Assembly (NCBI GenBank): GCA_036785375.1
Contig: JAWMAR010000201.1
Location: 1,364,001-1,428,000, forward strand
Origin: Leucoraja ocellata
Taxonomy: Eukaryota
DNA length: 64,000 bases
Direction of reading: 5' to 3'
Shown: piece by piece, positions 2,360-62,583 of the stretch
Numbering within the stretch: position 1 is the stretch's first letter
Layout of the letters: each line of letters begins with the position of its first letter
Notes under the pieces: generated by a model
What the model was told of the DNA's origin: nothing
The model's input: only the letters and a program-made list of their open reading frames with translations
Databases searched by the model: none
Translations under genes and position numbers: made by a program

Positions 2360-2395
2360 GCCTGGAAGATTGCCGTAAAAACGTGGAGAATTTAG
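2360..2395 (+). CDS. 36-nt phase-1 microexon (xLEDCRKNVENL)
   Basis: cttccacattacag|GCCTGG...AATTTAG|gtgaga. Confidence 0.8.
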   Translation, partial: AWKIAVKTWRI

Positions 2396-12752: not shown

Positions 12753-12784
<32 letters not shown>

Positions 12785-24700: not shown

Positions 24701-26914
24701 ACTACAATGACTGTTTATCCCACTCATTAAACTCATTGGCTCCTCTGAAACCCCGTACAGTCTCTTTTAGCAGGTCATCTCCGTGGTACACTCCTGAACT
24801 CCGCTATATGAAAATGGTGGGCCGGCGTCTGGAGAGACTTACAAAGAAAACTGGACTAACTATTCACCACCAAATGCATACAGATCATCTTCTCTCATAT
24901 AAAAATGCCCAGACTGCTGGTAAATCCTCCTACTACTCCAACATCAGCAACAACAGTGAAAATAACACTCGCACTTTATTCTCCATTGTCAACAAACGAC
25001 TTAAACCTCCTGAAACCTCGAATCACCTCAACTCCACTGCTCAGTGTAATACGTTTTTGGACTTCTTCAGTACCAAAATCACCAGCATTCATCACCAATT
25101 GAACTCTTTCTCAGCTTCTGCTCACAACGGCCCACACTGGACTTCCACACTGGACCCCCCACTATCCACCCTATCTACTTTCCAGCTTCCAACAGTCGAA
25201 TAAATAACTAAACTCATCACCAAGTCCGAGAACTCCTCCTGCTTGCTTGATCCCATCCCTACTGTCCTGGTTAAATCCTGTCTGCCCTCTATCTCACCCA
25301 TCATAACGTCCATAATTAACTCCTCCCTATCAACTGCTACTGTCCCTACATCTCTGAAAGTAGCTTCTGTCACCCCGATTCTAAAAAAAAAACAGGTTCT
25401 GATCCAAACAATCCAAATAACTACCGCCCCATCTCCAACCTCCCGTTCATCACTAAACTTCTGGAAAGGACAGTAGCGACACAACTTCAAGTCCACCTTC
25501 AAAACATTAACCTCTATGAACCATTTCAGTCTGGTTTTCGCCACAATCACAGCACTGAAACAGCCTTGGTAAAAATTACAAATGATCTCCTTCTCGCAGC
25601 TGACACCGGCCACTTATCCATCCTGATCCTCCTCGACCTCACAGCAGCCTTTGACACCATCTCCCATCCAATTCTTCTGGAACGTCTATCTGCCACCGGC
25701 ATCAACAACAATGCACTACTTTGGTTCAGGTCCTATCTACACCACAGAAAACAGTTCATCCAGGGAAATAAAGTCACATCCATAACTGCCATAGTCACCC
25801 ATGGTGTTCCTCAGGGATCGGTGCTGGGGCCACTGCTTTTTATCATCTATATTCAACCTCTTGGCAATATTCTCCTTCATTTTGGAATCATGTTTCACTG
25901 CTACGCCGATGATACACAACTTTACCTCTCCACAAAACCAAACACCTCCCTTCCCCCAACTGCCCTCACCTGTCTTCAAGCTATCAGCAACTGGATGTCA
26001 CTCAACCTTCTAAAATTCAATGGAAATAAAACAGAAATCATGCTAATTGGCTCAAAGTCCACACTCTCCAAAACCCACCCGTTCACCATTTCAGTTGATG
26101 GCTCACCCATACCCACCTCCTCCCATGTCAAAAGTCTCGGCGTCATCTGGACAGTACACTTTCCTTTGGCCCCCACATCAGCAATATCACACGCTCTGCA
26201 TAATTTCATCTCCGCAACATCTCCAGCTCCGCCCCTCCCTATCCAAAGACAATACAAAAGTCCTCATCCACGCTCTGGTCACATCCCGAATCGATTACTG
26301 CAACGCCCTCCTCACTTGCACCTCCAATAAACTTCTTCATCGCCTCCAATGCATTCAGAACTCTGCAGCCCGGATCATCACCCGCACCAGATCATCGGAC
26401 CACATCACACCCATCCTCACTCAGCTCCACTGGCTCCCTGTGCACCACCGGATTAACTACAATATTTTACTGCTGACCTTCAAAGCCCTACACCACCTTG
26501 CTCCCCAAGACCTCTCTGATCTGCTACTACCATACACTCCTTCCCGGTCACTTCGTTCCTCCTCAGCTGCAATTTTAACTGTCCCCACATTTAGACTCAG
26601 CACCATGGGTGCCAGAGCCTTCAGCTGCTCTGCCCCACGTCTCTGGAACACTCTCCCACCTCCCATCCGTCACCTGGACACTATCGATCAATTCAAATCA
26701 CAACTCAAAACACACATGTTTAGATTAGCATACCCGACATAACTTCCACCATCTTCACTCTGATTTTAATGACTTAAAATGTTTTGTGTATTTTTTTTGT
26801 TTTTTTTTGTTTTTGTTTTTCAATCAACTTGATTTTAATATTGATAAATGTATTGTGATTTTATGTCTTGTAAGTTGTCCTTGGGTGTCCAGAAAGGCGC
26901 CAGCAAATAAAATG

Positions 26915-26954
<40 letters not shown>

Positions 26955-29900: not shown

Positions 29901-32542
29901 ACTGTTAACGAGGCTGCCTTCGTGCGGCGCTACCCGGACTATTACAGAATCGCAGGTCATACCCGTCTGAACTGCTGCATGCTCCATTGGCCAGAAACGC
30001 CTATTATTGACTTCCCGATATATTCACGTCTTTCAAAAAATAGAGTGTCGGTTATGACCTTTCATTAGTATATGCAATTAATTCACATTAATCTTAAATA
30101 AGGTAGTTGACGTCCAGCAGTTCCAAGCCTGACGAAGGGACAAACACAATTGCCATGAGTCCCAATGACTTTTCGTGCAAGATTCAAAATATGCGTTATC
30201 AACCTGGGGACCTAGAATCGACCCCAAATGTATTAGGAAATCAAGTCTTCTTATTGTCTCCCTGAACATTCAGACGAAGAGGCAAGAGAGAAAAATTCAG
30301 GTGAATATATTTTCTGCTAATAATTTTATCACCGCTTGTAAGAAAGACTTTGGAAATAATTGTATTTATTTTGATTTTTAAGGTAAATAAAGGACAACTT
30401 TTGAATTGCTGATTATAAAAATAAAACTGAATTGGATTCAAATCAATTAAAGGCAATAAACACATTTCGCCGTGCATTAGGGGGCAGATTACTCCAGTTT
30501 TATGCTGCGGATATGTTCATAGAAACTATCATATTCTTCTATCTTTAAATTCCAACGTATTTGATTTTACATAAATGGCAACAACAAAACCATAAAGGAA
30601 ATAACTAGTATAATATGTGCTGATTCCTCTTAAATAAATCCATTACGTTTACCTGAATTTCAAATGCATTGTCTCGACTCTTACTGCTGTCAGGAGATTA
30701 GTTTGTCAACTACAGTGTGGACATTCAGTGTTCACGTTCCCAAGTAAACTAAACTGTGAAATTCATATCTCTGCTCTGTTTTATTGTCCGTCCTCGTGAC
30801 GAATCTGAAATGAGTGATCCCATTAAAATTAAAGGTTGACTTCTCAGTTGCAAATCATTCAAATAATAAATTATCGGTATTTCCACCAGTGGAATTTCAC
30901 CACACGTGTCCCATATTTGTGTTGCAGAAATAGCATCGCTCAAAAAAAATCTCATTGATACAGGTAAGCCCTGAAGGAAACGGCTGAACATGCTTCCCCC
31001 CCACACCCCCCCCCCCCCCCCCCCCAGTGTACGCAATTATAAATAATATAATTCACAGTATCAACATCGGTAATATTGATGCTAACTAAAATTCCACATT
31101 ACGAAATGTGTCCATTAATATTTGGAATTGAAAATAATGCAGATATTTGATGATTATCTCTTTTTTTATCTCCAGTTGGTGACGAAGAGTCACGTAAACT
31201 GATAACGCAAAGTTCATTGTACTTTTTCTTCTTCCATAGATAGTCATCACCAGAGCTAGTCTATCACTACCTGATATATTAATTACAATTTCTGTCTGGT
31301 AATTGCTGTTGGATTTTCATGGATCTGTCGTAGTGTGTGAACTCATATCGGGATTTAAAAAACGGATATAGACTTGTTGGGAAAAATACATAAATAGCGA
31401 AAAGGGCACAAATTAAGCGCATTTTACAAGATAATAACTTACGTAACCCGCATTCCAGCAAAACTATCTGCATACAACGTAACATGTCTGCAATTTCGGG
31501 CGCTTATATGTTTAAGTTTACTTAGTTTGCAACATTCTTTTTTTTCTTCAATTTAATTACTGGTACATTTCTTCCTTGTAAACGTGGATTTATGTTTGGA
31601 AGAAATAAAACTAATGCCCCGTGTCAAGTGATAGGATTGGGATCAGTATCAGATCATCAACTGTATTAATCACGTGCTTATCTTGCCCGCAATGCATCAA
31701 ACAAACTTGATGGCGAAAGTTACTGCTTGGAACAGAATGAAACGAAAACTATATAACCTATGGACATTTGATTAATTTCTGGAACACGTTATAAATGAAC
31801 ATAAAGGTAAAGGTAACATATACACCTAATCTTTCTCGAATAGAAGAAAAACTGCGACAGAGAGAAAAGGGTATGTGGTCCAGTATTGTGTAATATACAT
31901 TTCGTTTCTGTGCCTATCATTGTTCTTCTTACCTTTCACAACATGGTCGTAAACATGATCACAAAGACCAGATCCCGAAGATGTACTATACTAACACTTC
32001 ACGCTGCAACGGAAAAGCAAACAAACATAATCAAAAACGTTATCACCCCTGTCATTCCTTCTTCTCCCTGCTCTCGTCGCGAAGAAAACAAAAATGATTT
32101 GAAGCGTGCATTGCCATTATCAGGAATAGCCCCACTCCCTCCGTAAGGCATCGGAACTATTTGTCCATAAACTCGGGGTTGTCCGATTGTCCGCTCCAAA
32201 TTGCGGACTTAGGACTTTATTTCTGTAACGGGTCCGCTACAATGCTGAGAACGATTTGGTGGACTTCGTATCTTCCGCTTCAGGCTGCCTGTAGCAGTTC
32301 AGTTTGCGTGATTGTATATGTGTATAGTATTATCTGACTTGTTTGGATGTTATGCAAACCAAAGTTTTTAAGCGTAGCTCCGTACACACGTCAATAGTAT
32401 ACCACAACCAAAGGAAAACTGGCTCCATGCATTAATAGCTGCAAAGTAAATATGGGTTGTATCTGTTATTATCACATACCACAAACGTACACATATACGA
32501 GCGCGTTTTAGATCGCAAAATATATATAAAATATATATACAG

Positions 32543-32610
<68 letters not shown>

Positions 32611-35600
32611 CTAGGCCAAGTGCAGACCCGTTGGGTCTGTTCCCCCAACGTGTGTGTGTGTGTGGGGGAGGGGGGGGGGGGGGGGGGGGCGGTATGGTCT
32701 TGGACGGCATGGGCAGTAGGGCGCAAGGGCCTTTTTCCATCATGTGAGTCTCTGACTCTATGACACTATATGCGGCTGATTCTTCTCTAAACGATGTTCC
32801 ACCACATGATTCCCACCGTAACTTGTCGTTCTGTGATGCGTTGAAGAAAATTAAGTACTCAACAGCGGAAGCAGTGGGCAGGCTATTCACTCCCATACGA
32901 AGAGTCTTCATTATTTTTTTGCAAAAATTGGCGACATTTAAAATTTTCTGTTATTCCCTCCTGCAGAAAAAGAACATCTGAATGAGTTATTGGTAGATTG
33001 TGGTAAGTACGAATCTGAACTCTTAAAATATTGAACTAAATACATTTTAATATATACCATTTTCTAAAATAATATTTCAAATTATTTTTTTTCTTGTGAG
33101 TGATTCACTCGTAAGAACAGCTGAATTTATGAAATGTTGCTATTTTGGGAATGGTTAGAAATTTCTCTGCAAAATGTGTTGATTTCTCATTAAAACATAA
33201 TTCGGGGCTAGAGTCCGCGGCTGCCGGCATGAGGTTCCCTCATACTTCATAGTTGTCAGTTCTCTTTGTGAACTTACTTTGTTTCCGTAGTGCACGGAAT
33301 AATTTACCCCGTATGTACACACGTATCATCTTTTCTGTGCGTAATGCCGTACAGGATTACGTGTTGTTGCAGTTACATGTGCTTGTTGCCCTTTTTATGG
33401 GGATATTTGCACTTACCGAATCAGGAAATCTGTGAGTAAACCGCGTTCTGATTTTGCGAATCTTGTGATATATGATTATGAACATACGTTTATTTGCGCA
33501 TTCCTGGAGCAACAAGTGTAAAAAATATTGATTTCTATAGCGTATAATAGATAGAATTCGTGCCACGTTGAGCGAAATGGTGCAAAAATACATCAGCTGA
33601 TCGAACTACTTTATTAAAACTCGTAGCAGACTGTAGAATGTCACAAAGAGTTTAATATGAAACTCAAATAAAGCATTTTCTACGAAAAGGAGAAAACTAA
33701 ATTTTCCATGACGTCGATTCATAGCTAAAGAGAACGTTTCCTATTTATTCCGTCCTGTTGCCCTCAAATAATATACACTCCATCTCGTGTTGACTCATTC
33801 CATCGATTCGGGTTGATTTACAACAAATTGACAAATGTAACCATTTACCACACGTTCAAATTATAATAAAACTCTGGTTAAACCACAACACGCAATGGTA
33901 TCGGGCAAAACTGTCAGTCTTTAAATCAAGGGTCCGATTCCTTAGTTGATACTTACGTCCCTATTCGCAATAAAGCGTGTAATGGGCAGAACAGCTCTGA
34001 CTCGGCAGTTGGTTCCATATGTTGAATATCGCTGGCACCAATGTAATTAACAATGTGTCGATACATAAACATCATTGACGCAAGCATATTGGTGCCCGAT
34101 AACTGGACTCGATGCGTATTTGCCGACAATGTCCGATGAGAACTAATGTTTCTGGTGAGTGTGTGACGATTTTTTTCCCCACTGAGTTTGCAGACTAATT
34201 TTATATATCCTTCGCCTTAAAAAATTGATTCCCAATCCAGTGTTTCAACTTTGAGGGAAATTTCGCGAAATTCTGGAAATTCCGATTGTTTTCTGGTAAT
34301 TTTAAGGTAATCCTTTCTGGCGACATCGGCAACAGTTCGTCCGCGCTCGCGATTGAAAAGAGCGGCTGCTGCTGAAGCTCTTGGGCCCGACTCCGGGAAA
34401 GGCCGCTCCAATCCAAGCTGTTGGGCCGCGAGAGGGGAGGCGGATAATAGACAGAAAAAGTCGCCTCTCCGTCGAGGGTGACTGAGGAACGGTTTCCCCT
34501 CGCCCCCCCCCCCCCCCCCCCCCCCAATCACCCCCACGCAAGGCCCACCGAGAAACACCCAAAACAAACACTTAGACAAACCAAAAAAGCAAACAAATTC
34601 GAAAAAACGAACACGCTGCTGGCAGGGCAGCCGACTCGCAGCGCACCCAATCAAACAGGAACATTTAAAAAATTTGCGGAGCATTTTAAAACATGTCTAC
34701 CACTATCCCCACTTCAGGTGGAATTCGTCGCTTTTGTACATGAGCGTTGCGGCAGATCTTATACCATATTAAAAGAAATTATTCTCTCCAGTACAAACTC
34801 TTCGGGCACGCATTACTTTGCCCTATAGTCCTATTGCAAGCCACACTGGCGCATGCTCTCGGAATTCTGAGATTACAGCCATTGATTTCTCGCTGTTTAA
34901 CCTTCAGCATATGTTCCTAAATTATTCTACAGAATTGTATCATTATTCGAAGTTTGTCGTCAATACCAATGTGAACTACCCCTGGGGTCGGCGCCCGCTT
35001 CATAAATGTTCTGCAACCTTTCTTAGACTTTTTTGTCTCCCAATCGTCGAGGCAAAATGCCAGCGGTCTATTTTACGTTCACCGGATCTCCTGCCCATTC
35101 CCCTAATCATCGAACCTCCAAGGATTGCAATCCTGCTTGCGTGCAAACTCAACTGTTGCGCATCCATGCCATTCACTGTGCGATATATCTGACTGTTGCT
35201 GTTGGTCTCAATGCTGCACTGCTTTGATGATATCGAATACATTTGCAAATCGTGTTCGTCCCAATATCCTTAATTAGAAAATAACATTCATTGTTATTGC
35301 AGTTAAATGGATAACGGAATCACGCCGCTATCGCCGACAATATTAGAGGATGTGCTTTGATGTGCTAGTTGACCGAGAAGTCTTGCAAAAAATAACTGCC
35401 GAATGGTAATTTGGCGCAGCGCATTCCTTTGCTGCAACTTGGAATTCTTTTGACCGCTCTGCAGAAAATGGAGATTGACAAAATACCAACAAGTTCTGAA
35501 TTTGCTTTTGCCTGGACATATTTTTCTCCTCTTGAAATATTTTATTGTAAGGAACGTAAAGTCACCACAGGGAAAGCACATAGTGACTCTCAAAAGTAAG

Positions 35601-38600
35601 AGATAGGAAAGTGATGTTTTTGGATAAATAGTATGTCCATACGAACGTCCTTTCGGACATTATCATGTGTTGTATTTATATTGGGTATTAATAAATATGC
35701 TTATATTTTTTACCACAAACGTTATATATAATTTGTTTTTAATTAATTGTTACGTGATAAGTTGACATTTCTTTCTGAGAAAATTGGTAGATATCTTCAC
35801 CGGACGATTTCAAAATAGATTGTCTCGCCAAGTAAATACCCCTGAACTCAGACAACAAATTGTTAAATAGAATTGTACAATGCGAGATGATTTAACGAAC
35901 TGTTTAAAATTCTCCATTGCACGTTCAGATGTAATATTGGCAATTTCAACAGCCGCAGGATGTTGCTTTAGATATTTGGAATACGATCTATAGAATTATA
36001 GTCACGTAGCATGGAATTAAGGTGATTTTCCTCACTCAAGTATATAAACCAGGCTTTATATTTTGTCTAGGTTTGTTCCTTAACACTGAAAACGTATGTG
36101 TCACGTCACTTCAACGACGGCATTGTACACAACAACGAAGCTTGCTATGACACGATCCTCTGCGTAACCACCCAGGTCTCCATTTCAACATTTCTCCTCT
36201 CGCCTTAAATAATGTACTCTAGTTCCAGGCTCAACTACCATTGGGGTGAGACTGTATCCATGCATCTTATCAACGTCCGATTGATTATGCACATGGCTGT
36301 AAGGTCAAGCTTCAGCTTTCCTTGTTCCAAGGAAAAAGGTATCACCCCATCGAACATCTACTTTGAATATTGGTCCTCGAATCCAGTATCATTCTCTTGA
36401 ATGTGTACCATTCCCATCTTAATAACAAGCTTTCTAGAACATGACGAGCAGAACTGCAAACTGTACACTAGATCCGGCATCATCGGAGTCCTGCACAGGT
36501 GTATTATGAGGAGCCATCTCAGAGGATCCTTGCCCTGACAAATGTGGGGAAGCTTCCGTAACAACATTTTTTCACTGCGTCATCGAAATGATTGGACATT
36601 TTCCAAGAAATACTGATTAATCCAACCGCGGATTGCCAATATTTAAATTCCACCGTAGTGCATGTAGGGTGTTTGAGGTGGACAAATTGCCCAATTGCAG
36701 CTCAGTACTGTATTAATATTCAAAAATTCGTTTGGTACTTGACAAGGTTACTCGTGGCGTTGTTTAGGGTCAAGACCAAGGCCATTCGGCAGTTAATTTG
36801 TGCACTCAGCCCAATAAATCTCAATTTAATATTAATTAATTAAATATCAGTAGAATGCACGGACATATTATTGCTAAGTTTGATTCATATTTCCAATGTC
36901 ATTAATGGACAATATTGTATGAATCACATTAAAAATACAGTATTCTGAATATTCACTTGGATATTATATTTTCTTTTCAACAGACGCCGATTTGAAATAC
37001 AAATTAAAGGGTATGCATATTCACTTTAGAATAAGGCACAAAATTAACCCAGGTTCAACATATATCGCTATCATCGTTCTTCCATTTCCTGGTCTTTCCA
37101 ACACATGAATGACTTTGAAAATAACATTTTGGATAATAACCGGCACATCTCAATTAATATTTTTTTCCGAAGACAAACAAAATACATTTGTGTAAGTCGG
37201 ACATAATTTGTTCGATAAATTAGCTCAACGGATTTGCGAGGTTTGTTCCAAGCCATCGATCCTTGGAAAAAAACCCTATATTTTTGAAAAAGGACGTTCT
37301 TTCCCAACAAATGATATACTACAAATGTAGAATAAATGTATCAGCATAATGCATGTTTTCCTTTTAATTAGAAGTTGGGCTCAGACCACTCTCAATCCAA
37401 TCTCTTCAATTAGCATGTGTACGTTTGTACCGATGCAATCTCCATTATCTCTGTGGGAAAGTCTTTCAGGTCCTCAGCTTGATTTTGCAATTTTTTCAAT
37501 ATTTCATTATCCGGGAATCTACGCTTCTAACCGCCATCAGCGGGGGAATAACATTGATATTAATTTTACTTTACAAATCGTTTTTGGTTTACCTGTTTTC
37601 TCGGCTACGAAAGCCTCCGTTTGCAACAAATGCTCCATGTATTTAACGTATATTGGAAGATATTGGCTGGTTCCAAACACGAGTATCTTGCATTGTGACA
37701 CGTACTCCATTTAAATGCATGCTGTACCATTTTTGATTTGTTGCAGATGTAGACGAGATCAAAGCAAAACTTAATGAAACCGGTGAGTGTGCAGCATTGG
37801 ATACAGGAGGTTCAATGTCACGAAAATTAACTGCCAGAACTGTCCCGCGTTGTTCTTTACGACAAATCAGTAGCAACTAGCAGTAATGATTCTGATTTTT
37901 ACTTTCATTAGTTCTCTACAATAATATGTTAATGCGTACAATATCCCATGGTCAATGCAGTTATTTCAGTACATCGCAAGATAATTAATATCTATGCAAC
38001 TGTAGAAATATTTGTTTTAAAGAAAAGCTAAAACGTGTAAATACTTTAAGGCAGAGTTAAACTTAATTATTAAATGTATTAGAATTAAATTTCTGGCCAA
38101 ACAAAGTGAAGGATTAATGGAATATAAACTGTGTTCCAAAGAGCACAGCGTCAGATTCAGGGTCAAGCTCAGGTCCAGGTACAGGATCGAAGACAGCGTT
38201 CTCAGATTACATTTCAATAGCAAACATATATACTTGAGATGACATGATATCGCCGTACCGTTTCTTGTTCTCACCATCTCCATAACAGGAGACATACCAT
38301 TTTACTTCCGAGGACGACTCTCCCACATGGAGCAACATGTGGAGAAGTAATCTCCATTGCTTCACAATGATCTGCTCCGTAGGAGGGAGCAGTGTCAGCA
38401 CAGGTCTCCACAGCAGGCCGTGCCAGGAGCCTCATACATTAGGCAGCACAATGTCTTCCCCATTGTAGTGGGAAGTACATATGGAGCAAACTACTCTGAG
38501 TCAGAGTATGGAAGCAGAAGGGGGGAACACTCCCAGGGACGTGCAGAAGAAGCGCCTCTGCAATCATCCAGGTTTGCCATCACAACACCACTGGGTGCTC

Positions 38601-53600: not shown

Positions 53601-56600
53601 TTTCATGCACCAGATTATATTCCAATGCATAACAGCGTAAAACAGTCTCCATTAACCGACACATTAGTAACGTGGACGTAACGTAACGTAAACACTTTGT
53701 AGAGTAGTGCAAATATCCAATTCACGGAAACACATCGTGGATGTTCGCATATATCCCGATAAAATCAACTTGGACTTCGGCCACGTTGAAGAAACCCCAC
53801 ATGCTTTTGAAACATTTTCACGTTTACAAATTTACGTGTTATGATAGCTCAAATTACTGCTTCATTTTCAACTATAATACCATTTTAGGTTAGTTTTGAG
53901 ATACAGCGCGGAAAAACCGGTTCGCCCTACCGAGTCCGCACCGACCAGCAATTCCAGCAAATTAGCACTACTCGGCACGCACTCTGGGGACAAGTTTTAC
54001 ATTTATACCCAGCCATTAACCTGCAAACCCGTACGTCTTTTTAAATGTGGGAGCAAACCGAAGATCTTGGAGAAAACACACGCAGGTCACGGGGAGAACA
54101 TACAAACATGGTACACACAGATTCCGTAGTCAGGATCGAACCCGTGTCTCTGGTGCTTTAAGGCAATTGTTCAATCGCTACGCCATGTGGTCGTTGAATT
54201 TTTTATCTAGTGCGAAATTATCTTTCTCTTCAATATTACTTATGCCCCTGTCCCACTTAGGAAACCTGAACGGAAACCTCTGATGACTTTGCGCCCCACC
54301 CAAGGTTTCAGTGCGGTTCCCGGAGGTTGCAGCTGGTTGCCGGAGGTTTCAGGTCGTGGAAGCAGATAGGGAGACTGACAAAAACCTCCGGGAACCGCAC
54401 GAAAACCTTGGGTGGGGCGCAACGTCTCCAGAGGTTTCCGTTCAGGTTTCCTAAGTAGGACAGGGGCATTAGGGTAACGATCGTTTTGGTTTCATATTCG
54501 TTATTATTATGCCAAGGGTTCTCCGTGCTTGGAGTGTGTTGTACAGTTCACGTCACTACACTATAGGGCGAACATGATTGAGTAAATAAGATACAGAAGC
54601 GAATTCCAAAAACGTTACTTTGATTAAATGGTTTGGGCAATCAGAAATTGTTGGTTAAGCTAACTCAGTTTTCTCTGTAACGAATAGTGTAAAAGTTGAC
54701 ACGATAGACGTATAGAAAGTTAAGAGGGGCAGAATACGATAAATAGTCAGTTCTGTACCCTACGTCTGGGTGCGGTCCAAAATTAGAATGCATACAGTTA
54801 ATGTGAGTAAGAGTTCGGTGCAAAATCTGTGGAGCATTTATTCGTACAAGCTATATTTGGTATAAGAAATGACATTCCAAATACACGTTGAAGATTTGAA
54901 AAATTGCACCATTTAACATACATCTGATCAGGTATTTTCAAGAAAAGAGGATAGGTGTATTGCATGCGTGTGGGATTATTATAAAAATACATAATGATTG
55001 TCAGGCGCACTGATCCCAGTTTATGGAACACCATGATTCAATAAATTAACTGTCAGATCATTCCCCCAATAATCATATTTACTAATATTGCATAAAACTG
55101 AGTTGATTATTAATCCTCCCCTATACTCAGCTAGGTCACATCCTGCAAAAAAACATCCGTTTTTATATTTGTTTGGTTTCTACATAAAGGTACACTGTAA
55201 AAGTTGTATGAAAAATGCTATCTGACCTAGCATCCAGCTAAATGGAAACGTCCCTCTTCGTTATTTTCCATAGTCCTCTTTCGGTGCTTCAGCATATGTC
55301 AATAAATGATCCCTTCATTCTGTTTCTGGTTTTCGGATAGAAAATTCAAGGTAAAAGGCTGACAAATTCTGACAACATCCAACATTTCATTGATGTATAT
55401 TTCACGCAGTTTGAACGTCCACGATCTATTGATCAGCACATGTAACATCATTTGATTTGCACGCATTAATATCACTCCCTTTCCATTTATAAAAACATAA
55501 GCCAATAAGTACTTGGAGATGAATGATTACTCAATATGAATGCATATGTTTCCTCTTCGACAGCACTCGTGAAATTGAAAGAAAATGTTATAGAGTATGG
55601 TGAGTAAATCAATAAACTATTTGTTGCGGTCCATGCAGCTAAACTGGTTTAAAATTACTATTATATTAATGCACCTTCATCTTTGCAACGAAAAAAACAA
55701 CTTTCTCAGCAAATATATATTTGTTTACTTATTCAACTAACTGGTGGTCATTTGAGTTCTTGTGTAGTGATTCTGGACGTGGATGCACCTTAACTTAACA
55801 CTCTGTTGTTCGCAGTTCCAAACGTCAAGAAACATACCATGACGTTTTGAGACCTAGTTGCTTCGTCATTTTATGTCCTTTTTCAGTGAGACAATCACTT
55901 GCTGACTACTACAATATATGAATATTTCTCCAATCTGCTCAAATGGAGTACACAGTCCTTGGCTCTTGTTTTAAATACACCGATTGCAAGTATGTATAGA
56001 TAAGTTAGATTTTCAAACCACATCGTTTCTCCAAGCAATGTTTTATTTCCGTACAGAAATGAAACAAACCACGCATGACACAGGTAAGAGGATAAAAATA
56101 ACTGCATGCGCAGACACTATTTACATTTCATTTCGAATTGCTCCACATTTTAGCCACAGTAGCAAGGCTTGAGCAAATATTTGCCATATCATTTGAAAGG
56201 CTGAGGTAAGAGAGAGACCTCTGCTCTTCATGCACAATCTGTTAGATTGACTCACTTCATCTGGACAAAGTGCAGACGGGAGGTAGGCAGTGTTAGCGAT
56301 GTGGACGAGAGATGTTGGGCAAAGGTTATCAAGTAATAATGGACGCAGATAACTAGGGGTTGATTGGCAGATAGCACCCGAGTGGGGACCAGAGTGATGG
56401 ATATTGCAGCTGATGCTAGAAGTTGATTTTAGGAGAAGAAAAGCCGGAGATTCTGGGTTCACATAGGAAAGGGGATGATGCGTGGATCTAAATAAGGTAC
56501 GTTGACAGAGTATAAAACATGGGAAGTTAATCAGTTGGGTGAGGGTAAAATTAAACAGTGCGTCTGTGTGATGGATGATGGTGTATGTGGGAGAAGCGGA

Positions 56601-59600
56601 ACATCAGGATAATGTAACATGTGTGTTACTGAAGGAACAGGGGTAGTGTATTAATATAGCTAGAAAGGAAAATATATACGGGGTACCTGGAAGGATACGT
56701 GGTATCTGGAATTGTAATGTGCTATATTCCGACAATGTAAGACACTGTTTCTTTATTTTCTGTTTGGCCATCACACTGGCATTGGAGGAGGCAGAAAACA
56801 ACTATAACGCCTCGTGAATGGGTTGGGGAAATAAAATGGTTGGCCAGCGAGAGGTAGATATGGCTACGGCGGACAAAGTGCATGTGCCAGGCAAAGCTGT
56901 CACCGACTCCACGTTGTATCTCATAGATGTAGGAAGGCCACACGAAAAGCACCAAGTGTAATGGACGAGCTTGGAGCCTCCAGCAACTGTTGTGCCCTGT
57001 GCCTCCTGTTTATGTCATATTCAAATGTTATTACTCTTTATTTATCTTTTCATAGTTCGTATCCCCACACACATATTTAACCTATGGTGAATGGTCATAT
57101 ACAAGCCTATTCGTTTTTCCTCAGATGCAGTGAGATGGATACAGTGTCTAGCTTCTCGGACTCTATCCAGGAAATTAGCAAACACGAACGAAGTATGGAT
57201 GTGCAAACCTTATTATCACCATACAAATAGGACAGGTGACGAGGTTGTACCACTGGAATATATGTGTATACCATAAATATATGGCAACAGTACTGTGAAA
57301 ACAAGTATATCTTAGTAGGATAAGAACAACAACTAATAAAGCTATCGGGATCTGACGACCATCATGACCCTCCACACCCTTGCTGATGAAGAGGCACACT
57401 ATATGAAGGTCAAATTTGCCACTATACTAAGTCAACAGTGTTGACTATTCAACTGTTGATTATCGTGCGTTCTACAACATCTTAAATCGAATCACCTGTA
57501 AATTAGTCCATGTTGTGATCTGCGGATACTTTGAGAATATTCGATACCATCACACGTCAAATGCCTTCAGGCAGCTCTGCATTTCAAAATCAGATATCGT
57601 GGCAACATCTTTCTCTGCAGCTGAAGCGTCATTTCCCTTCTAAAATGGCTGAACACGACCATGTCCTCCACATCTGTTTCCTAGATATGTAATTGTCCAA
57701 GGCAACCAATAACCGATGTCATATGTTTTATTACACTCTCTAGAATGCTTGAAAATGAAGGACGATCTAGATGATAAAGGTATTTTTTTAACTCTACGCT
57801 TAATTGTGTAGCAGCATATGATTCTAAAAAACATTACCATAAATAGAAACATAGAAACATAGAAACAAGGTGCAAGAGATAGGCCATTCGTCCCTTCGAG
57901 CCTGCACCGCCATTCAATATGATCATGGCTGATCATCCAACTCAGTATCCTTTACCTGCCTTCTCTCCACACCCCCTGATCCCTTTAGCCACCAGGGCCA
58001 GATCTAACTCCCTCTTAAATATAGGCAGTGAACTGGCCTCAACTACCTTCTATGACAGAGAATTCCACAGATTCACCACTCTCTGTGTGAAAAATGTTCT
58101 TCTCATCTCGGTCCTAAAAGAGTTCCCCCTTATCCTTAAACTGTGACCCCTTGTTCTGGACTACCCCAACATCGGGAACAATCTTCCTGCATCTAGCCTG
58201 TCCAACACCTTAAGAATGCTGTACGTTTCTATAAGACCCCACCCCCCCCCCCCCCCCCCCCCCCCCTCAATCTTCTAAATTCGAGCGAGTACAAGCCAAG
58301 TCTATCCAGTCTTTCTTCATATGAAAGTCCTGCCATGCCAGGAAACAGTCTGGTGAACCTTCTCTGTACTCCCTCTATGGCAAGAATGTCTTCCTCAGAT
58401 TAGGAGACCAAAACTGTACCCAATACTCCAGGTGTGGTCTCACCAAGGCCATGTACAACTGCAGTAGAGTAGATTGTAAAAGCAAATAAAGTAATGAATG
58501 TTATGTTAAATATGTTATGAATGTTATGTTAAACAGGTATGTTAAATTATGCACGAAGGGGACATTTTAAAATTGGGGTTATAGTTCCAGGAAGACATGA
58601 AGGAAGTACATGTTGTGCAGTCAACAAATTATATCAATGCATTGCACAGCATTGCAAAATCCCAAATTTAAGTGCACGTTTATAAACTGACGATATCGCA
58701 GAAAATACCCGAACTGCGTTGAGAGGCATCTGATGCATCGATGCATTCTCCATTTTGTAATACTTAATTTGTCTGAAACTGAGTGCAATAAAGAACATTT
58801 GTTGAAGAAGGAACCGCAGATGCCGGAAAATCGAAGGTAGACAAAAATGCTGGAGAAACTCAGCGGGTGAGACAGCATCTATGGAGCGAAGGAAATAGGC
58901 AACGTTTCGGGTAGAAACCCTTCCTCAGAAAAAAAAAACATTGCATGCTAGTGATCAGTTTCAGTGCCTGTATACTGATTTACAGCATTCTTTATTGCAA
59001 CTCGTTTTGCTTTTTAGACTAGTCATATCGTAAAATTATTTCGTTTGTAACATGACTTTAAAGTTCCCTTCAGCACGTAGGCCTCGTTTCCTAACGTGCT
59101 TACCCAGTCTGTTTGCTCTTCGGGTTATACCTAATTAAAAGCTAAAATGTGTTCGTATATTTTACAGAATGTCCTACATTATGCGCTGTCCATGATAAAC
59201 GATTGTATGAGCCTTTGCTACTGACGAACAGCTACTAACTTATCATAGATCGACATTGTTTAGATTACATTACCAAGCCTGCGGAGCGCTCGAAAAATAA
59301 CAATTGACATAATGCTATTTGTTCAGATGAATTCGTTCTTAACCTCAGCAACGCGAGAATTGACGTCCAATATGAAACATTAACCGGAATAATTTAATCA
59401 GAAATTGAAATGAATATGAATTCTGGCAATCGTAAATTTACCCCGTGATTTGAATCAAAATACCATTCGAAATCAAATGATCCTCAAGGGGTCATTTCAC
59501 ATGTTAGATGGATTAAATACGGTGAATATATTATCTTATATATATTCGGTGAATATATTCTCTTTGAGTCAAACCCACTTTCGAAATTGATGCAATTTAT

Positions 59601-62583
59601 TGGAACTGGAACGAACATTTAAAAAGAGTTTCACGGAAATCATCCTTCCAAGAAAGATTATACATTGAAATTCGCCCCTGTTATCGATGTTGTATGATAT
59701 AAACCTTTTGAAGCAAACACAATTATGTCGAACCATACCGTTGTAGCCCAAATAATTCGCAGTGCATGTCGTTGTGATGTTTTATAAACACGCATTAATA
59801 AAATTTCCAACAGTGCAAGCATTAGCAAAGAAGGACAGAGGCAAGTAGATTTTGATGACCGTGGTCAGTACAAAATGCTTGCAGATCGTTGTAATTTTCA
59901 ACGAATGAAACAGGTTTGATTAAATTTGATATACTTTGACATGCTAGTTAGTTATCTATCAATCTGAGATGTTCCCTAAAATTGCATTGTACACACATTT
60001 TGAAATATTATCCGCACGTTAGTGCTTTTAGAAACCTAACCTACCCGTGATCGCTTCAATGGATAGCTGCAAATAGCTAAGCAGCTTAGTATGTAAGAGT
60101 CTAAGAGCCCTTGTTATGATATCAATAACAAGAAGATGGAACAGATTTTGTCAGATATAATCTGAAGCAATCATACCATTTTGTTTCCACTGGAAGATAT
60201 GTATTAGTATTATGTAGCTTTGGAGTAACCTTTCAGGATTCAGTATTTATTCGCACATCTTTAACTTTGTTCACATTTAAGTGTAAACCTATAACCTCAT
60301 TGCACGCTGTTATATCACATTTTGATCCAGAACTGGATTCAATCATTCTATTACTACGCATCGAAAACCAATAATATTTTCATATTTTAGGTAATTATTT
60401 AAATCTACGCTTACATAAACCTTCGCGACTGGAAATAATATTTTCAAAAACGACTTATTTATGAAATATATCCCCCCCCCCCTCCCTCGTAGTAATGAAT
60501 TTTCACAATTTTATTGTGAATGTGTACATCACGCTTCGAAATTCGCTGCTGAAAAATGTACATGCACATAAACTATCAATGTATAGAGAGTGCTCCTTAT
60601 AATTTCAACTAATACCAGTTTACTATTATTATACCAACTGAGAAGACTGTGTTTTGCTATTATAACATTTTCTTCATTTTGTTTCCAAACAGAATTAGAA
60701 AAACTAAGGAAATCACTCACGAATTATGGTAAGTTTAATAAATGACTACAGATGGCTTGTTTTCACGGTAAACTGTTTCTGTAATTGCCTTGCCGTCTTT
60801 TACATATATTGGGTCAATGAATTTTAGGAGAAACCGCACAAGAAATTTAGTATGGTGCTGTTCAGTTAACTTGAACTCATTGTTCAGCCAATCACCGAGT
60901 CACCATCTCTCAGAATAATTTTTGAATGCATTGCTGTTTTCTGAGTTGACAATAGACAACAGTAGTATTAATAAGGGAGCACACCAATAATTTTGCACTG
61001 ACTATATTTGCACTGACTATATTTACTTCCATAGATAGTAGGTAGTTCAATTTGGGATTCAGAATTCTTCACGCCATAGATATGAAATCGGCAATTCCCT
61101 AATTTAATTGATGCCAATAATCTGCAGGTCTTGAAATTGACATAAAATAAATCGGGAACAGCAAAATCATGAAAAGGAAAAAAAAAACAATGTTAAAATA
61201 AAAGTTATCAATCTGAGGCAAATACGGGACTATTTTGACATTGATCAAACTCAGATTAGCTTGCAGTCGAATCACAGTGCACTGTGATTCGCTGCCGAAG
61301 AATTTAATCCTGTGGCTACTAGCATTTCGGACAATTCCAGGTGACTTCCGATTCCCCACCGTATTTCACGATAAGCGAAGCCCCCTTGTTTCACTTTAAA
61401 CAGCGCAAATAATCATGTAAACGTATTTTATTGCGAAATGATAGTCGCAGATGTTTTGTTAATAGAACAGGCAATTTCCTATTGATCACAGTAGCCAAAA
61501 AACTGACAATAGGGTTGCAACATGCATTTCACAAAATTAACTATTGCAAACATTTGGTGTATTTTAAGCCTTTCATCAAAGCATGATGCACGCACTTGTA
61601 GAACAATGCTGATATAATATTTATGGGTCAAATGCGATTTCATCCAAACAAATGCTTTAATGCAATTTAAGAAAACAATTTGGTCAATGTAAAGACTAAT
61701 TACTATAACAACAACTTTTATCCGATTGTACGCGATAATATATGTAAATAATAAATATCTCACGACGAGAAAGAACGATTATTCTGAGCATTTAACTGGG
61801 TTGCAGAACAGAGGGTACAACCAGCAGGAAGAGTATGCCAGAGCAATGTAGTGTGAAATTCCAAGGAATGAAACGATTCGCGTTATAAAGTCGAAATATG
61901 CCAACGAAATGATACCTGCGCCCATAACGTAATATGTGACATCGAGTTCTAGAGGGATATGTAAAATATGAAGTCAGCTAAAGAAAGTTGAGTCAATGTT
62001 ATTGTAATTATCCAAAGTAAGGGACATATTGACTCGGACTATGCACATAAATAGGAATCATACGTAAATTATATGCATATGGATTACAACTCAAATGCTT
62101 AAGACAGTGGAAAAATAAAGACTGCAACATTGCCAAGGGGTGCCTAATGAATGATTGAAGAAATACGTTTATTAGCCAAAGTTTCACATACAAGGAATTG
62201 TCCTTGGAGCTCCGCCCGCAAGTGACAACATGACATACAGTGGCAGTTAAGAATGACACATAAACTATTAATCATTAATACGCCGAATGCTATAATTATT
62301 TTTTGCAGAAAAATAAAAGATAATGTCAAACTCAGATCATCAATGTCTATCACAACACATCCCATCCGAGAGGCTATGTTTACAAATGAAATAATATTAT
62401 CAACGTGTTCATAATTAAAGGGACATTATGTTCAGTATTTTCTCATGTTTAATCGTGAGATCAATCGAATGAAATGTTCTGCTCAAGCTTGAGTATCAGA
62501 AAATTAATCGTGCCTTCACTTGTAATTGTACACGGGCATGTTATTGACATTAACAGAGGAGAACTGGAGCACTGAAAGCAAAG
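2360..62583 (+). CDS. Internal part of an unidentified multi-exon gene: array of ~30 symmetric phase-1 microexons (27/36/15 nt) encoding a long coiled coil; both gene ends lie outside the window
   Basis: 30 exons (12 x 36 nt, 16 x 27 nt, 2 x 15 nt = 894 nt), all on +, all AG..GT/GC bounded, all open in phase 1. Conceptual splice: xLEDCRKNVENL-ERNIEANEK-ALTDCDASY-AKSKE-DFGILQEKC-KLDLDAKDT-EIDSLQSKIQES-ENKKK-EIERREEAH-EISSLKERLQSA-DFEAKEKID-DEEAREKNS-EIASLKKNLIDT-EEKLRQREK-EKEHLNELLVDC-DADLKYKLK-DVDEIKAKLNET-EKRMNNTEK-EFQKLKDICQEE-EMESLRSKLTDW-EQDLNMKDI-TIEKLTVTDSDK-EQKLNFKER-ELEKLKGILLEY-EQKMSVKDK-ALVKLKENVIEY-EMKQTTHDT-VQALAKKDR-ELEKLRKSLTNY-EENWSTESK. Confidence 0.85.
3479..3505 (+). CDS. 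27-nt phase-1 microexon (ERNIEANEK)
   Basis: tatattttttag|AAAGAA...GAAAAGG|gtaaga. Confidence 0.85.
4418..4444 (+). CDS. 27-nt phase-1 microexon (ALTDCDASY)
   Basis: ttctggtgttcag|CCCTAA...AGTTACG|gtaggt; an internal AG offers an in-frame 18-nt alternative. Confidence 0.65.
5579..5593 (+). CDS. 15-nt phase-1 microexon (AKSKE)
   Basis: ttcttcatatcgctttag|CAAAATCAAAAGAGG|gtaagt. Confidence 0.75.
5678..7229 (+). mobile_element. 5'-truncated CR1-clade LINE (RT domain to 3' tail), young but inactivated
   Basis: ORFs 5632-6468 and 6360-7130 carry CR1 RT motifs (NYRPVSLTS, QHGF, YLDFQKAFDKVPH, SGVPQG, LVRPHLEYCVQFW). There is a frameshift after GVPQG, the FADD motif reads FAND, and the copy ends in (TTTCTATG)3. 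Confidence 0.95.
8314..8340 (+). CDS. 27-nt phase-1 microexon (DFGILQEKC)
   Basis: tttatatctgtatag|ACTTTG...AAGTGCA|gtaagt. Confidence 0.75.
9330..9356 (+). CDS. 27-nt phase-1 microexon (xLDLDAKDT)
   Basis: gttcatttttaag|AACTTG...GATACAG|gttcgt (weaker donor). Confidence 0.7.
9840..10135 (+). mobile_element. SINE 3' half with L2-type tail
   Basis: (TGTGTGAATG)n linker, GC-rich core, tail gtaaagcgccttgag...gaaaggcgcc...(TAT)n resembling the L2 tail at 26870-26953. Confidence 0.75.
10305..11030 (+). mobile_element. Degraded CR1 LINE RT fragment
   Basis: SKFADDTKLGG at ~10355; LYRALVRPHLEYCVQF in ORF 10602-10913. Confidence 0.9.
11218..11253 (+). CDS. 36-nt phase-1 microexon (EIDSLQSKIQES)
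   Basis: ttttcttataactag|AAATAG...GAATCGG|gttagt. Confidence 0.85.
12100..15320 (+). mobile_element. Old, heavily decayed long CR1-like LINE (ORF1 remnant, APE endonuclease, RT) with nested fragments
   Basis: ORF 13120-13329 YDVAVIKDTWL...PGYSCVRRD...GEGVA is APE-like; decayed RT-like text 14100-15300; boundaries approximate. Confidence 0.75.
14416..14615 (+). mobile_element. Young CR1 3' end nested in the older LINE
   Basis: Near identical to 7025-7229, ends (TTTCTATG)2. Confidence 0.9.
16047..16061 (+). CDS. 15-nt phase-1 microexon (ENKKK)
   Basis: tttgttttttaatacag|AAAATAAGAAAAAAG|gtaatc. Confidence 0.7.
17020..17320 (-). mobile_element. tRNA-derived SINE
   Basis: Reverse complement begins gggcggcacagggg-cgcagtggtagagttg (A-box-like head); related to 17913-18160 and 53885-54190. 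Confidence 0.75.
17913..18262 (+). mobile_element. tRNA-derived SINE followed by CR1-type 3' tail
   Basis: gcgcagcggtcgag (A-box-like), gggttcgatcc (B box); tail ccatgatcacattgaatggcggtg...ctattgtctattg. Confidence 0.8.
18839..18865 (+). CDS. 27-nt phase-1 microexon (EIERREEAH)
   Basis: atattgtttcag|AGATTG...GCTCATG|gttagt. Confidence 0.8.
18949..20544 (+). mobile_element. Tc1/mariner DNA transposon, full length (~1.6 kb), transposase pseudogene ~19333-20316
   Basis: TA|CAGTGCATTCAGAAAGTATTCAGACCCC left TIR, right TIR GGGGTCTGAATACTTTCTGAAT. Transposase motifs ARRKPLL, ILWSDD, VKHGGG-like, FQHDN, WQSPDSN, with several stops. Confidence 0.95.
20935..21430 (+). mobile_element. CR1 LINE 3' fragment
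   Basis: ORF 20896-21537 FTGLIPGMAGLSY...NLWNSLPQ; tail (TGTCTAT)-like. Confidence 0.9.
22471..22506 (+). CDS. 36-nt phase-1 microexon (EISSLKERLQSA)
   Basis: ttttttctaaattcatcacag|AAATAT...AGTGCAG|gtaagc. Confidence 0.88.
23500..26953 (+). mobile_element. L2-clade LINE, near-complete ORF2 (APE + RT) with stops/frameshifts and (TAT)n tail
   Basis: FNVRSL..LCLTETW, IYRPP, GDFNIH, PTHNKGHILDLV, SDH (APE). FQSGFR..HSTETAL, LLDLTAAFDTI, GVPQGSVLGPLLF, YADDTQLY (RT). LHWLPV C-terminus. Confidence 0.95.
23864..24200 (+). mobile_element. Young CR1 3' fragment nested in the L2 endonuclease region
   Basis: SRTRGHSLRIR...GTGY*, (TTTCTATG)4 tail; L2 frame resumes at GCTPTLIVSIYRPP. Confidence 0.93.
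27570..27926 (+). mobile_element. Decayed CR1-like RT fragment
   Basis: Degenerate WQMxFN...CxVLHFG...YTING and KKAxGMLAFI-like text. Confidence 0.6.
27927..28126. other. Assembly gap (N run)
   Basis: 200 N. Confidence 1.
28285..28420. repeat. Head-to-head Penelope-like terminal repeat fragments forming an inverted repeat
   Basis: gaatgggtgacgtttcgtgtcgag ... ctcgacccgaaacgtcacccattc; same family as 49480-49560 and 58800-58928. Confidence 0.65.
28883..28909 (+). CDS. 27-nt phase-1 microexon (DFEAKEKID)
   Basis: ttttccttggtttccag|ATTTCG...ATTGACG|gtgagt. Confidence 0.85.
29510..29935 (-). repeat. GC-rich interspersed repeat (unclassified)
   Basis: C-run, A-rich tract, then gaggctgcc...gcggcgc terminus; architecture shared with 34310-34650 and 43700-44550. 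Confidence 0.5.
30274..30300 (+). CDS. 27-nt phase-1 microexon (DEEAREKNS)
   Basis: tctccctgaacattcag|ACGAAG...AATTCAG|gtgaat. Confidence 0.75.
30928..30963 (+). CDS. 36-nt phase-1 microexon (EIASLKKNLIDT)
   Basis: atttgtgttgcag|AAATAG...GATACAG|gtaagc. Confidence 0.88.
31176..31193 (+). CDS. Possible 18-nt phase-1 microexon (VGDEES); not counted in the 30
   Basis: Strong acceptor tctctttttttatctccag, weak donor C|gtaaac; symmetric and open but not a 27/36 size class. Confidence 0.35.
31844..31870 (+). CDS. 27-nt phase-1 microexon (EEKLRQREK)
   Basis: ctttctcgaatag|AAGAAA...GAAAAGG|gtatgt. Confidence 0.85.
32519..32608. repeat. (TA)n microsatellite
   Basis: Direct reading. Confidence 0.95.
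32611..32690 (-). mobile_element. Helitron-like 3' terminus
   Basis: Minus strand reads cagaccc-aac-gggtctg hairpin, short spacer, then CTAG followed by T. Confidence 0.55.
32967..33002 (+). CDS. 36-nt phase-1 microexon (EKEHLNELLVDC)
   Basis: ttattccctcctgcag|AAAAAG...GATTGTG|gtaagt. Confidence 0.88.
34310..34650 (-). repeat. GC-rich interspersed repeat (unclassified)
   Basis: GC-rich body, poly-C, A-rich tract, gcagggcagcc...gcagcgcaccc terminus. Confidence 0.5.
36984..37010 (+). CDS. 27-nt phase-1 microexon (DADLKYKLK)
   Basis: ttttcttttcaacag|ACGCCG...TTAAAGG|gtatgc. Confidence 0.85.
37747..37782 (+). CDS. 36-nt phase-1 microexon (DVDEIKAKLNET)
   Basis: ttttgatttgttgcag|ATGTAG...GAAACCG|gtgagt. 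Confidence 0.88.
38215..40120 (+). mobile_element. Decayed DIRS-like (tyrosine-recombinase) retrotransposon fragment: gag-like region plus RT
   Basis: 39661-39850 translates PIHKEYRKYLKFNWMGQ*CQYKALPNGLTSAPRLFTKLLK...VMAYLDDIFIFG (YLDD at 39826-39837). Also KEWCWITTDPFVLHSIEGLKIEF and KSKLPP..IDYLGFTINT, which are DIRS-type. Confidence 0.8.
40203..40229 (+). CDS. 27-nt phase-1 microexon (EKRMNNTEK)
   Basis: ttttcacactag|AAAAAA...GAAAAGG|gtaagt. Confidence 0.85.
40500..40672. repeat. (GT)n/(GC)n/(GCGT)n compound microsatellite
   Basis: Direct reading. Confidence 0.9.
41662..41697 (+). CDS. 36-nt phase-1 microexon (EFQKLKDICQEE)
   Basis: taattttgcag|AGTTCC...GAGGAAG|gtttgt. Confidence 0.78.
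41895..41980 (+). mobile_element. CR1 3' tail remnant
   Basis: gaatggcggtgctggctcgaagggccgaatggcc...tttctatg. Confidence 0.85.
42833..42868 (+). CDS. 36-nt phase-1 microexon (EMESLRSKLTDW)
   Basis: tgtattccctgcag|AGATGG...GATTGGG|gtgagt. Confidence 0.88.
43070..43685. repeat. CpG-rich interspersed repeat (unclassified)
   Basis: Abrupt GC/CpG-rich block in an AT-rich intron; no credible ORF. Confidence 0.45.
43700..44550 (-). repeat. GC-rich interspersed repeat (unclassified, longest copy of this architecture)
   Basis: CpG-rich body, C-runs, A-rich tract, gaggctgctgcagtgcagcgcccc terminus. Confidence 0.55.
44670..44831. other. Assembly gap (N run) preceded by (CACT)n-like repeat
   Basis: 162 N. 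Confidence 1.
45473..45499 (+). CDS. 27-nt phase-1 microexon (EQDLNMKDI)
   Basis: gtatttcttttcag|AACAAG...GACATTA|gtaagt. Confidence 0.85.
46280..46826 (-). mobile_element. Rex1/Babar-clade LINE 3' fragment
   Basis: Minus strand LDWSFNAEALHKKGRRRLQFLKRLR; ends ...AIRL then 3' UTR with aataaagttcta. Confidence 0.8.
46983..47018 (+). CDS. 36-nt phase-1 microexon (xIEKLTVTDSDK)
   Basis: gccttgtttcag|CGATAG...GATAAAG|gtgagt. Confidence 0.85.
47520..48365. repeat. GC/C-rich repeat region, probably a retroelement terminal segment
   Basis: Poly-C runs, CpG-rich, internal tandem gtgacatatccggcgctt x2; family not identified. Confidence 0.4.
49024..49050 (+). CDS. 27-nt phase-1 microexon (EQKLNFKER)
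   Basis: acaacatacatag|AACAAA...GAGAGAG|gtaaag; weak pyrimidine tract but clearly similar to exons at 45473 and 52281. Confidence 0.78.
49460..50050 (-). mobile_element. Penelope-like element 3' part (GIY-YIG endonuclease remnant plus terminal repeat)
   Basis: ORF 49847-50113 LCIGQSKHRMRDHFAENLRSVR matches the YIG-TxRxLxxRFxEH pattern; downstream terminal repeat with gaagggtcccgacccgaaa. Confidence 0.75.
51303..51338 (+). CDS. 36-nt phase-1 microexon (ELEKLKGILLEY)
   Basis: ttttgttgatacag|AATTGG...GAGTATG|gtaagt. Confidence 0.88.
51710..52195 (+). mobile_element. Rex1/Babar-clade LINE 3' fragment
   Basis: FFLRRLKK...NFYRCTIENILTNCITVWYGNCS...LQRVVK...LFTLLPSVRRYR...NSFYPAAVTLLN; tail (TGAATC)n. 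Confidence 0.88.
52281..52307 (+). CDS. 27-nt phase-1 microexon (EQKMSVKDK)
   Basis: tgttatttcattag|AACAAA...GACAAAG|gtacga. Confidence 0.8.
53885..54190 (-). mobile_element. tRNA-derived SINE
   Basis: caggatcgaacccg is the reverse-complement B box; same family as 17020-17320. Confidence 0.8.
54243..54468. mobile_element. Palindromic MITE, PIF/Harbinger-type
   Basis: TGCCCCTGTCCCACTTAGGAAACCTGAACGGAAACCTCTG ... CAGAGGTTTCCGTTCAGGTTTCCTAAGTAGGACAGGGGCA, flanked by TTA on both sides (54240-42, 54469-71). Confidence 0.9.
55564..55599 (+). CDS. 36-nt phase-1 microexon (ALVKLKENVIEY)
   Basis: tttcctcttcgacag|CACTCG...GAGTATG|gtgagt. Confidence 0.88.
56057..56083 (+). CDS. 27-nt phase-1 microexon (EMKQTTHDT)
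   Basis: ttttatttccgtacag|AAATGA...GACACAG|gtaaga. Confidence 0.85.
56230..56960 (-). mobile_element. Older decayed Penelope-like 3' fragment
   Basis: 56760-56950 parallels 49830-50030 in degenerate form. Confidence 0.55.
57842..58468 (-). mobile_element. Young CR1 LINE 3' fragment
   Basis: (CATAGAAA)n then reverse complement of 6630-7200; internal poly-C expansion. Confidence 0.93.
58800..58928 (-). mobile_element. Penelope-like terminal repeat with hammerhead-like core
   Basis: Minus strand: CTGAGGA-A-GGGT-ttct-ACCC-GAAACGTT. Confidence 0.6.
59814..59840 (+). CDS. 27-nt phase-1 microexon (VQALAKKDR) with GC donor
   Basis: aaatttccaacag|TGCAAG...GACAGAG|gcaagt (GC-AG donor consensus AG|GCAAGT). 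Confidence 0.72.
60693..60728 (+). CDS. 36-nt phase-1 microexon (ELEKLRKSLTNY)
   Basis: cattttgtttccaaacag|AATTAG...AATTATG|gtaagt. Confidence 0.88.
62557..62583 (+). CDS. 27-nt phase-1 microexon (EENWSTESK)
   Basis: ttgacattaacag|AGGAGA...AGCAAAG|gtaaaa. Confidence 0.7.

Follow-up and report, generated by a model that had tools for sequence, protein, structure and literature searches.

The window, by which we mean the whole stretch of 64,000 nucleotides of Leucoraja ocellata DNA analysed here, falls entirely inside one array of micro-exons (array 1) on the + strand (Table 1). Between positions 31844 and 62583, a splice-site scan delineated 18 of these exons, with 567 coding nt spread over 30.7 kb and introns of 457-3981 nt. 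Each exon was stop-free and in phase 1-1, with an AG before it and a GT after it except for a lone GC donor. The scan placed all 17 exons of the initial annotation where that annotation had put them, in phase 1 and stop-free. The near-strict alternation of 27 and 36 nt claimed for them held at 16 of the 17 steps of the 18-exon range, compared to a mean of 9.0 in shuffled orders (p=0.0007, 3000 shuffles), but the "27,27" given near the end is in fact 27,36,27, a 36-nt exon having been overlooked. In an unbiased scan of the window for lengths of 12-90 nt, the 70 candidates on the + strand included 9 of 27 nt and 11 of 36 nt, these two lengths being the only peaks, whereas the 61 on the - strand included 2 and 1, respectively. 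The alternating 36- and 27-nt segments are a real, non-random feature of this DNA.

Table 1. Features of the micro-exon arrays in and around the window. Coordinates below 1 or above 64000 continue the window numbering along the same contig. Class A, core residues at positions 2, 5 and 9; class B, core residue at position 4.
Feature	Position	Strand	Remark
36-nt micro-exons	2360, 11218, 22471, 30928	+	in window; with the two rows below, 13 more micro-exons of the same gene (2360..30963)
27-nt micro-exons	3479, 4418, 8314, 9330, 18839, 28883, 30274	+	in window
15-nt micro-exons	5579, 16047	+	in window
27-nt micro-exon, class B	31844..31870	+	
36-nt micro-exon, class A	32967..33002	+	core at 2, 5, 9, 12
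27-nt micro-exon, class B	36984..37010	+	
36-nt micro-exon, class A	37747..37782	+	
27-nt micro-exon, class B	40203..40229	+	
36-nt micro-exon, class A	41662..41697	+	
Possible decayed 27-nt exon	42088..42114	+	at the sole 36-36 break; good donor, no AG; score 4.9, below null level; uncounted
36-nt micro-exon, class A	42833..42868	+	
27-nt micro-exon, class B	45473..45499	+	
36-nt micro-exon, class A	46983..47018	+	
27-nt micro-exon, class B	49024..49050	+	
36-nt micro-exon, class A	51303..51338	+	
27-nt micro-exon, class B	52281..52307	+	
36-nt micro-exon, class A	55564..55599	+	
27-nt micro-exon, B slot	56057..56083	+	without position-4 hydrophobe
36-nt micro-exon, class A	57744..57779	+	overlooked by the initial annotation; score 24.9
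27-nt micro-exon, class B	59814..59840	+	GC donor
36-nt micro-exon, class A	60693..60728	+	
27-nt micro-exon, class B	62557..62583	+	
Array 2, paralogous, 61-65 exons	222038 to 69882	-	
Array 3, paralogous, 206-225 exons	242321-751241	+	
Terminal B30.2/SPRY exon of array 3, phase 1	752209-752728	+	Pfam SPRY E 5.7e-15

The residues encoded by the two lengths differ in a regular way, much as the initial annotation had described. First, the nine 36-nt exons of the range, for which hydrophobes had been proposed at residues 2, 5, 9 and often 12, carry one at position 2 in 8/9, at 5 in 9/9, at 9 in 8/9 and at 12 in 5/9 cases. Second, position 4 is hydrophobic in 8/9 of the 27-nt exons, as claimed, while position 7, where a frequent K had been noticed, is Lys in 5/9 and hydrophobic in 0/9. 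Per 21 residues, five of six core sites are filled and the sixth, position 7 of the 27-nt exon, is polar.

Over its full extent, array 1 comprises ~148 phase-1 micro-exons from -222164 to 67892 (~290 kb), encoding ~1,470 residues with 3 prolines. The curated list, which includes a few weak exons picked by eye, holds 83 exons of 27 nt, 54 of 36 nt, 6 of 15 nt and 5 others; the automated list counts 132-149 exons depending on the threshold, with 2-3 hits on the opposite strand. By using class models trained on array 1 we located two further arrays on the same contig (arrays 2 and 3), and the automated catalogue lists 132, 61 and 206 exons for arrays 1, 2 and 3, versus 2, 0 and 0 when the strand opposite each array is scanned. 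A candidate first coding exon at -224555, picked by eye, would encode a 32-residue hydrophilic head, and at its other end array 1 stops 1.2 kb before a run of 200 N at 69054.

Array-wide, two classes can be told apart: class A exons, of 36 or 27 nt, have core residues at 2, 5 and 9, and class B exons, of 27 or 15 nt, have one at 4. Of the 147 junctions, 105 are A-B or B-A, 23 are A-A, 3 are B-B and 16 are unclassified; the 23 A-A adjacencies come from missed, decayed or lost exons. The general rule is that two exon classes alternate while their lengths vary. The 36+27 pair, proposed to make exactly three heptads, is not the sole unit: 27 of the 53 spacings from one 36-nt exon to the next are multiples of 7 residues, but 26 are not, including 10 at 4 mod 7, which would be stutters in coiled-coil terms. 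From -41809 to 11253, the order 27,27,27,36,15,36 (56 residues, 8 heptads) recurs about twice, and 18-residue and 17-residue pairs appear to offset one another there. Two exon-like remnants were also noticed in the window: at 27349-27390, where a B exon is expected, one has a damaged splice site and a stop and scores at or below the null, and at 53314-53340 another, seen by eye only, has a damaged splice site.

The initial annotation had held that the joined exons keep one continuous heptad register. We scored register on the predicted product with our own a/d weights and a 7-state Viterbi path, in place of a published predictor. When the real exon order was compared with permuted ones, as that annotation had proposed, breaks were rarer in the real order: 1 in the 18-exon range versus 6.7 in shuffled orders (p=0.0007, 3000 shuffles). 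The sole break lies at the 36-36 junction 41662/42833, and because of it the Fourier power at period 3.5 over the entire range is only 0.1 (p=0.88). From 42833 to 67866 the power reaches 7.9 versus 1.1 in shuffles (p=0.0003) with 0 breaks, and from -77459 to -41809 we observed 0 breaks versus 6.7 and a power of 21.6 versus 1.6. Across all 148 exons of array 1 there are 32 breaks versus 55.8 (p=0.005, 200 shuffles), in array 2 there are 15 versus 23.0, and in array 3 there are 43 versus 81.2 (40 shuffles). The 22 exons at the 5' end of array 1 gain nothing from their order (9 breaks versus 8.4), so the register is continuous over much of the array but not at that end. Register continuity therefore holds above chance, and the idea was largely right, yet it describes one rule among several.

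Concerning the unit of duplication, 41 rows of duplicated exons with alignable introns were found; the row covers two exons in 22 cases and comes to a multiple of 7 residues in 23. These rows are not independent, forming ~11 clusters (grouped by eye), and all lie in arrays 2 and 3; array 1, whose copies are old, has none. The recent duplicates in arrays 2 and 3 are mostly 36+27 pairs, but units of 27+27, 36+15 and 36+39 were seen as well, and one cluster has units of 25 and 46 residues (4 mod 7); some of the non-multiples of 7 reflect exons that the catalogue missed. The two-exon module, put forward as the unit of both duplication and selection, thus fares well in the first role, the exon pair being the usual though not the only brick. 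For the second role, pair copying without selection on register would also give alternation, so we infer it; selection on register is likely.

Shuffling exons inside their length classes gave 1.1 breaks across the 18-exon range (p=0.88), no worse than the real order, and members of one class can thus stand in for each other there. This would fit a reading in which the alternation is a record of old exon-pair copying and the 21-residue register was inherited, not itself selected, as would the 26/53 spacings that are not multiples of 7 and the skipping of single exons in the models of relatives. We regard this reading as possible but doubtful, given that core positions are 85-91% hydrophobic across 54 exons only ~45% identical, and that from -41304 to 30928, where lengths are mixed, the period-3.5 power is 19.0 versus 9.3 in same-length shuffles (p=0.007). 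It concerns what the initial annotation had drawn from the alternation and is compatible with our main reading of the gene, namely that the 18 segments are probably a slice of an old phase-1 array of ~148 exons under purifying selection, whose product would be a coiled coil of 1,470 residues or more, a rod in the cytoplasm that likely ends in B30.2 past the assembly break.

Two lines of evidence bear on age and constraint. First, the 36-nt exons share only 39-47% pairwise base identity and their intron flanks are unalignable, which indicates that frame and pattern are long-lasting and that the array is old. Second, contig C2204 is a 97% copy (haplotig or duplicate) of the 5' 50 kb of array 1, and 19 micro-exons compared between the two show 1 synonymous difference in 552 nt, versus 52 differences in 2305 flank bases (2.3%; Poisson p=5e-5). 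The candidate first exon carries 2 amino-acid-changing differences in the C2204 copy. The same comparison between two unplaced contigs, C3233 and C3305, has no power (0/198 exon bases and 3/636 flank bases differ). As judged from the genome, the array 1 micro-exons are kept under purifying selection, their spliced product being a predicted one.

We also looked at 8 RNA runs, whose tissue and species identity is not established; for 59300-61300, no RNA run was listed. Over the micro-exons from 48400 to 63000 there was no depth in 4/4 runs sampled at 1-32%, only repeats being covered, and the B30.2 coding exon of array 3 had no depth in 4/4 other runs sampled to the same extent (1-32%). One single-cell run had a depth of ~1-4 just past the stop codon of the B30.2 exon, and exon-exon joints appeared in none of the 8 runs (1-32% sampled). 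Support for array 1 as a gene is indirect, coming from purifying selection and from the RefSeq models of its relatives.

The neighbourhood of array 1 suggests how the rod may end. Array 3 is followed by a B30.2 exon, whose domain has BTN3A1 as best PDB match (E 1.8e-26), and by analogy with this sister on the same contig array 1 likely has a B30.2 tail of its own. Arrays 1 and 2 converge on the 200-N run at 69054, for which no overlapping or bridging contig was found, so the 3' end of array 1 is missing from the assembly. Arrays 1 and 2 align colinearly (15.2 versus 7.2-9.9 in 6 shuffles), whereas the colinearity score of arrays 1 and 3 stays inside the null (8.5 versus 6.1-8.9). C3233 and C3305, which are 85-87 kb long and 97% identical, hold a micro-exon and B30.2 tail that could be the missing tail of array 1 or 2; they also contain two exon-like segments with in-frame stops, one of them present in both contigs. 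A C-type lectin neck was considered for the rod and rejected, no credible CTLD motif being found.

We favour three paralogous genes, the tails of two being lost at the gap, and give less weight to a single gene whose middle is inverted. In the latter arrangement, arrays 1-3 would form a gene of ~1 Mb with ~440 micro-exons, more than the 363 exons of titin, the block at 69.9-222 kb being inverted in the assembly or in the individual; its product would be a B30.2-tipped rod of ~4,450 residues and >600 nm, with length and register tuned by two-exon bricks, and it would represent a class of giant B30.2 rods, cytoplasmic and so far unannotated, in cartilaginous fish. A single candidate first exon and a single B30.2 exon were found across 977 kb, flipping array 2 keeps the B-to-A alternation at both junctions, and the strand switches on contig C253 indicate that orientation in such arrays may be unreliable. 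Yet no N run interrupts the sequence at 222-242 kb, where the arrays switch head to head, array 2 behaves as a colinear paralog of the array 1 interior, the tail on C3233 and C3305 could close array 1 or 2, and no near-identical inverted repeats were found flanking the block. We hold a single gene of this size to be unlikely.

Very unlikely, in our view, is that array 1 encodes a rod that stands alone and lacks B30.2, like the chicken BG soluble tail, or is a truncated and decaying paralog, since the missing tail, the possible decayed exons near 27349 and 42088 and a candidate exon at 72732 that has a stop and a poly(A) signal (rejected as a terminal exon, like the candidate at 72315, because both fall within array 2 introns on the other strand) are set against micro-exons strongly conserved between copies and against the 5/5 related B30.2 exons checked elsewhere that close micro-exon arrays.

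Those five B30.2 exons lie on four other contigs, each with a micro-exon array upstream. On C253 (737714-1926252), two outward-facing B30.2 exons enclose a region with micro-exons in 9/10 interior 10-kb samples, and from sample to sample the array changes strand several times, which hints at misoriented pieces or inversions. In protein databases, the six single-domain matches that we checked are proteins of 129-378 residues, five being clusters with chimaera, shark, skate or ray names and one unnamed. RefSeq relatives are XP_069775384.1 (Narcine), XP_038668997.1 (Scyliorhinus), XP_055510696.1 (Leucoraja) and XP_042191566.1 (Callorhinchus). In the paralog C253a, 6/11 micro-exons match the Narcine model in order, in steps of 9 and 12 residues, whereas the array 3 tail has a good match to the Scyliorhinus model for only 1/8 exons; isoform models of Narcine skip single 9- and 6-residue blocks. 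Chondrichthyan RefSeq models (chimaera, shark, skate, ray) hold only the 3' tip of such genes.

Broader searches gave weak negatives: none passed among 7991 candidates scored in an exon-profile protein search, among 70 longer proteins with a B30.2 query, or among 5122 proteins of 652-2000 residues with the ray model. Matches from the ESM Atlas were all coiled coils of a generic kind, scoring at most 0.76. A tight DNA pattern matched nowhere; a shorter one hit 7 sites, 5 of them on other contigs and none of these 5 a micro-exon array. A profile for MHC class II beta matched nowhere and is hence silent on MHC linkage. SPRY domains are strongly expanded genome-wide, with 1021 candidates, of which the 150 scored were all above the family cut-off. 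We found no published description of this giant micro-exon coiled-coil family, although supplementary gene tables could list its loci.

Of the known systems, chicken BG genes come closest in exon structure. PMC4046983 and PMC8813856 describe 13-36 exons of 21 (sometimes 24) nt, one heptad each, placed behind an IgV domain and a transmembrane helix and without B30.2; exon number varies by duplication, and a soluble tail-only product ("zipper protein") is known. According to PMC4046983, this soluble tail acts on actin-myosin. Array 1 has in common with BG a long heptad region made from many small symmetric exons (~148 of phase 1 here); here, by contrast, three heptads are divided between a 36-nt and a 27-nt class, the arrays have ~60-225 exons each, and a sister, array 3, ends in B30.2. 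Exons of 21 nt number 2/148 in the curated list, so the one-heptad exon of BG is not the rule in array 1. Butyrophilins, as described in PMC12841164 and PMC8813856, have IgV, IgC, a transmembrane helix, a few heptads and then B30.2. The heptads followed by a BTN3A1-like B30.2 in array 3 recall this order, but the rod here is far longer and the Ig and transmembrane front parts were not found. Motif scans detected no Ig motif ORF from -300 to +164 kb, and of the phase-1 exon candidates in arrays 1-3 (77, 36 and 111, respectively) none was credibly Ig-like. For a transmembrane helix, hydrophobic candidates number 3 in array 1 and 2 in array 3; their splice sites are weak or they resemble simple repeats, and none lies before the array start. 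Motif scans found no signal peptide, the candidate first exon being hydrophilic.

A cytoplasmic coiled coil with B30.2 is also the layout of TRIM proteins with PRY-SPRY (TRIM58, TRIM21, pyrin), and RefSeq names the relatives "TRIM39-like", "TRIM69-like" and "TRIM58". Unlike TRIM, the candidate first exon would supply a short hydrophilic head, and no RING or B-box was found, either in the 4/4 models of relatives (Pfam SPRY only, these models being 3' fragments) or on visual inspection of the exon candidates that lie upstream of the array. The chondrichthyan RefSeq models share the B30.2 subfamily, and in that of Narcine the domain comes after blocks of 9 and 12 residues ordered as in the paralog, but they measure 175-378 residues whereas the genes here span hundreds of kb. 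By analogy, the array gene would work like BG and butyrophilin tails, and its front end, as predicted, would place it outside the BG, butyrophilin and TRIM families.

For the gene that we favour, the following architecture can be proposed. An A exon (g-a..d..a..d) and a B exon (..a..polar d) would together form a 21-residue brick of three heptads, whose copying would lengthen the rod without shifting its hydrophobic seam, and rarer bricks of 18, 17 or 25 residues would add stutters or stammers. The part seen would be ~220 nm long at 0.1485 nm per residue. It would pair with itself, probably as a dimer, via the five hydrophobic and one polar core sites per 21 residues, and would hold B30.2 domains at its tip as a long spacer or scaffold, as do the ends of butyrophilins and TRIM proteins, where a coiled coil leads to B30.2. 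As for function, a link to immunity or to the cytoskeleton is a guess prompted by B30.2 and chicken BG.

Genes that extend over several hundred kb and consist almost entirely of 15-42-nt exons escape routine annotation; what databases keep of them, under TRIM-like names, is the final 200-400 residues. In the array family one 21-residue module exists in hundreds of natural replicates, which makes it testable whether protein periodicity selects the exon duplications and losses that survive, and also how cells splice 150-400 consecutive micro-exons. A giant rod with B30.2, for which no Ig, transmembrane or RING part was found, would be an added layout in the butyrophilin/BG/TRIM lineage, in the oldest jawed vertebrates.

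Finally, other genes were noticed along the contig. Just upstream of the array lie two tandem NLR genes on the + strand (-283k to -270k and -252k to -235k), with a NACHT domain (Pfam E 4e-39; exon ~89% identical between them), LRR exons and two N-terminal exons that in our own reading resemble a death fold, Pfam being blank for the one tested. The array is not an extension of the upstream NLR gene, which has its own stop. Inside an array 2 intron, the - strand carries a 1,517-codon open frame (183355-187905) that resembles an LTR retrotransposon polyprotein. From 793943 onward, 41 kb past the B30.2 exon, an intronless voltage-gated potassium channel-like gene (BTB_2 + Ion_trans) provides a synteny anchor for other assemblies.
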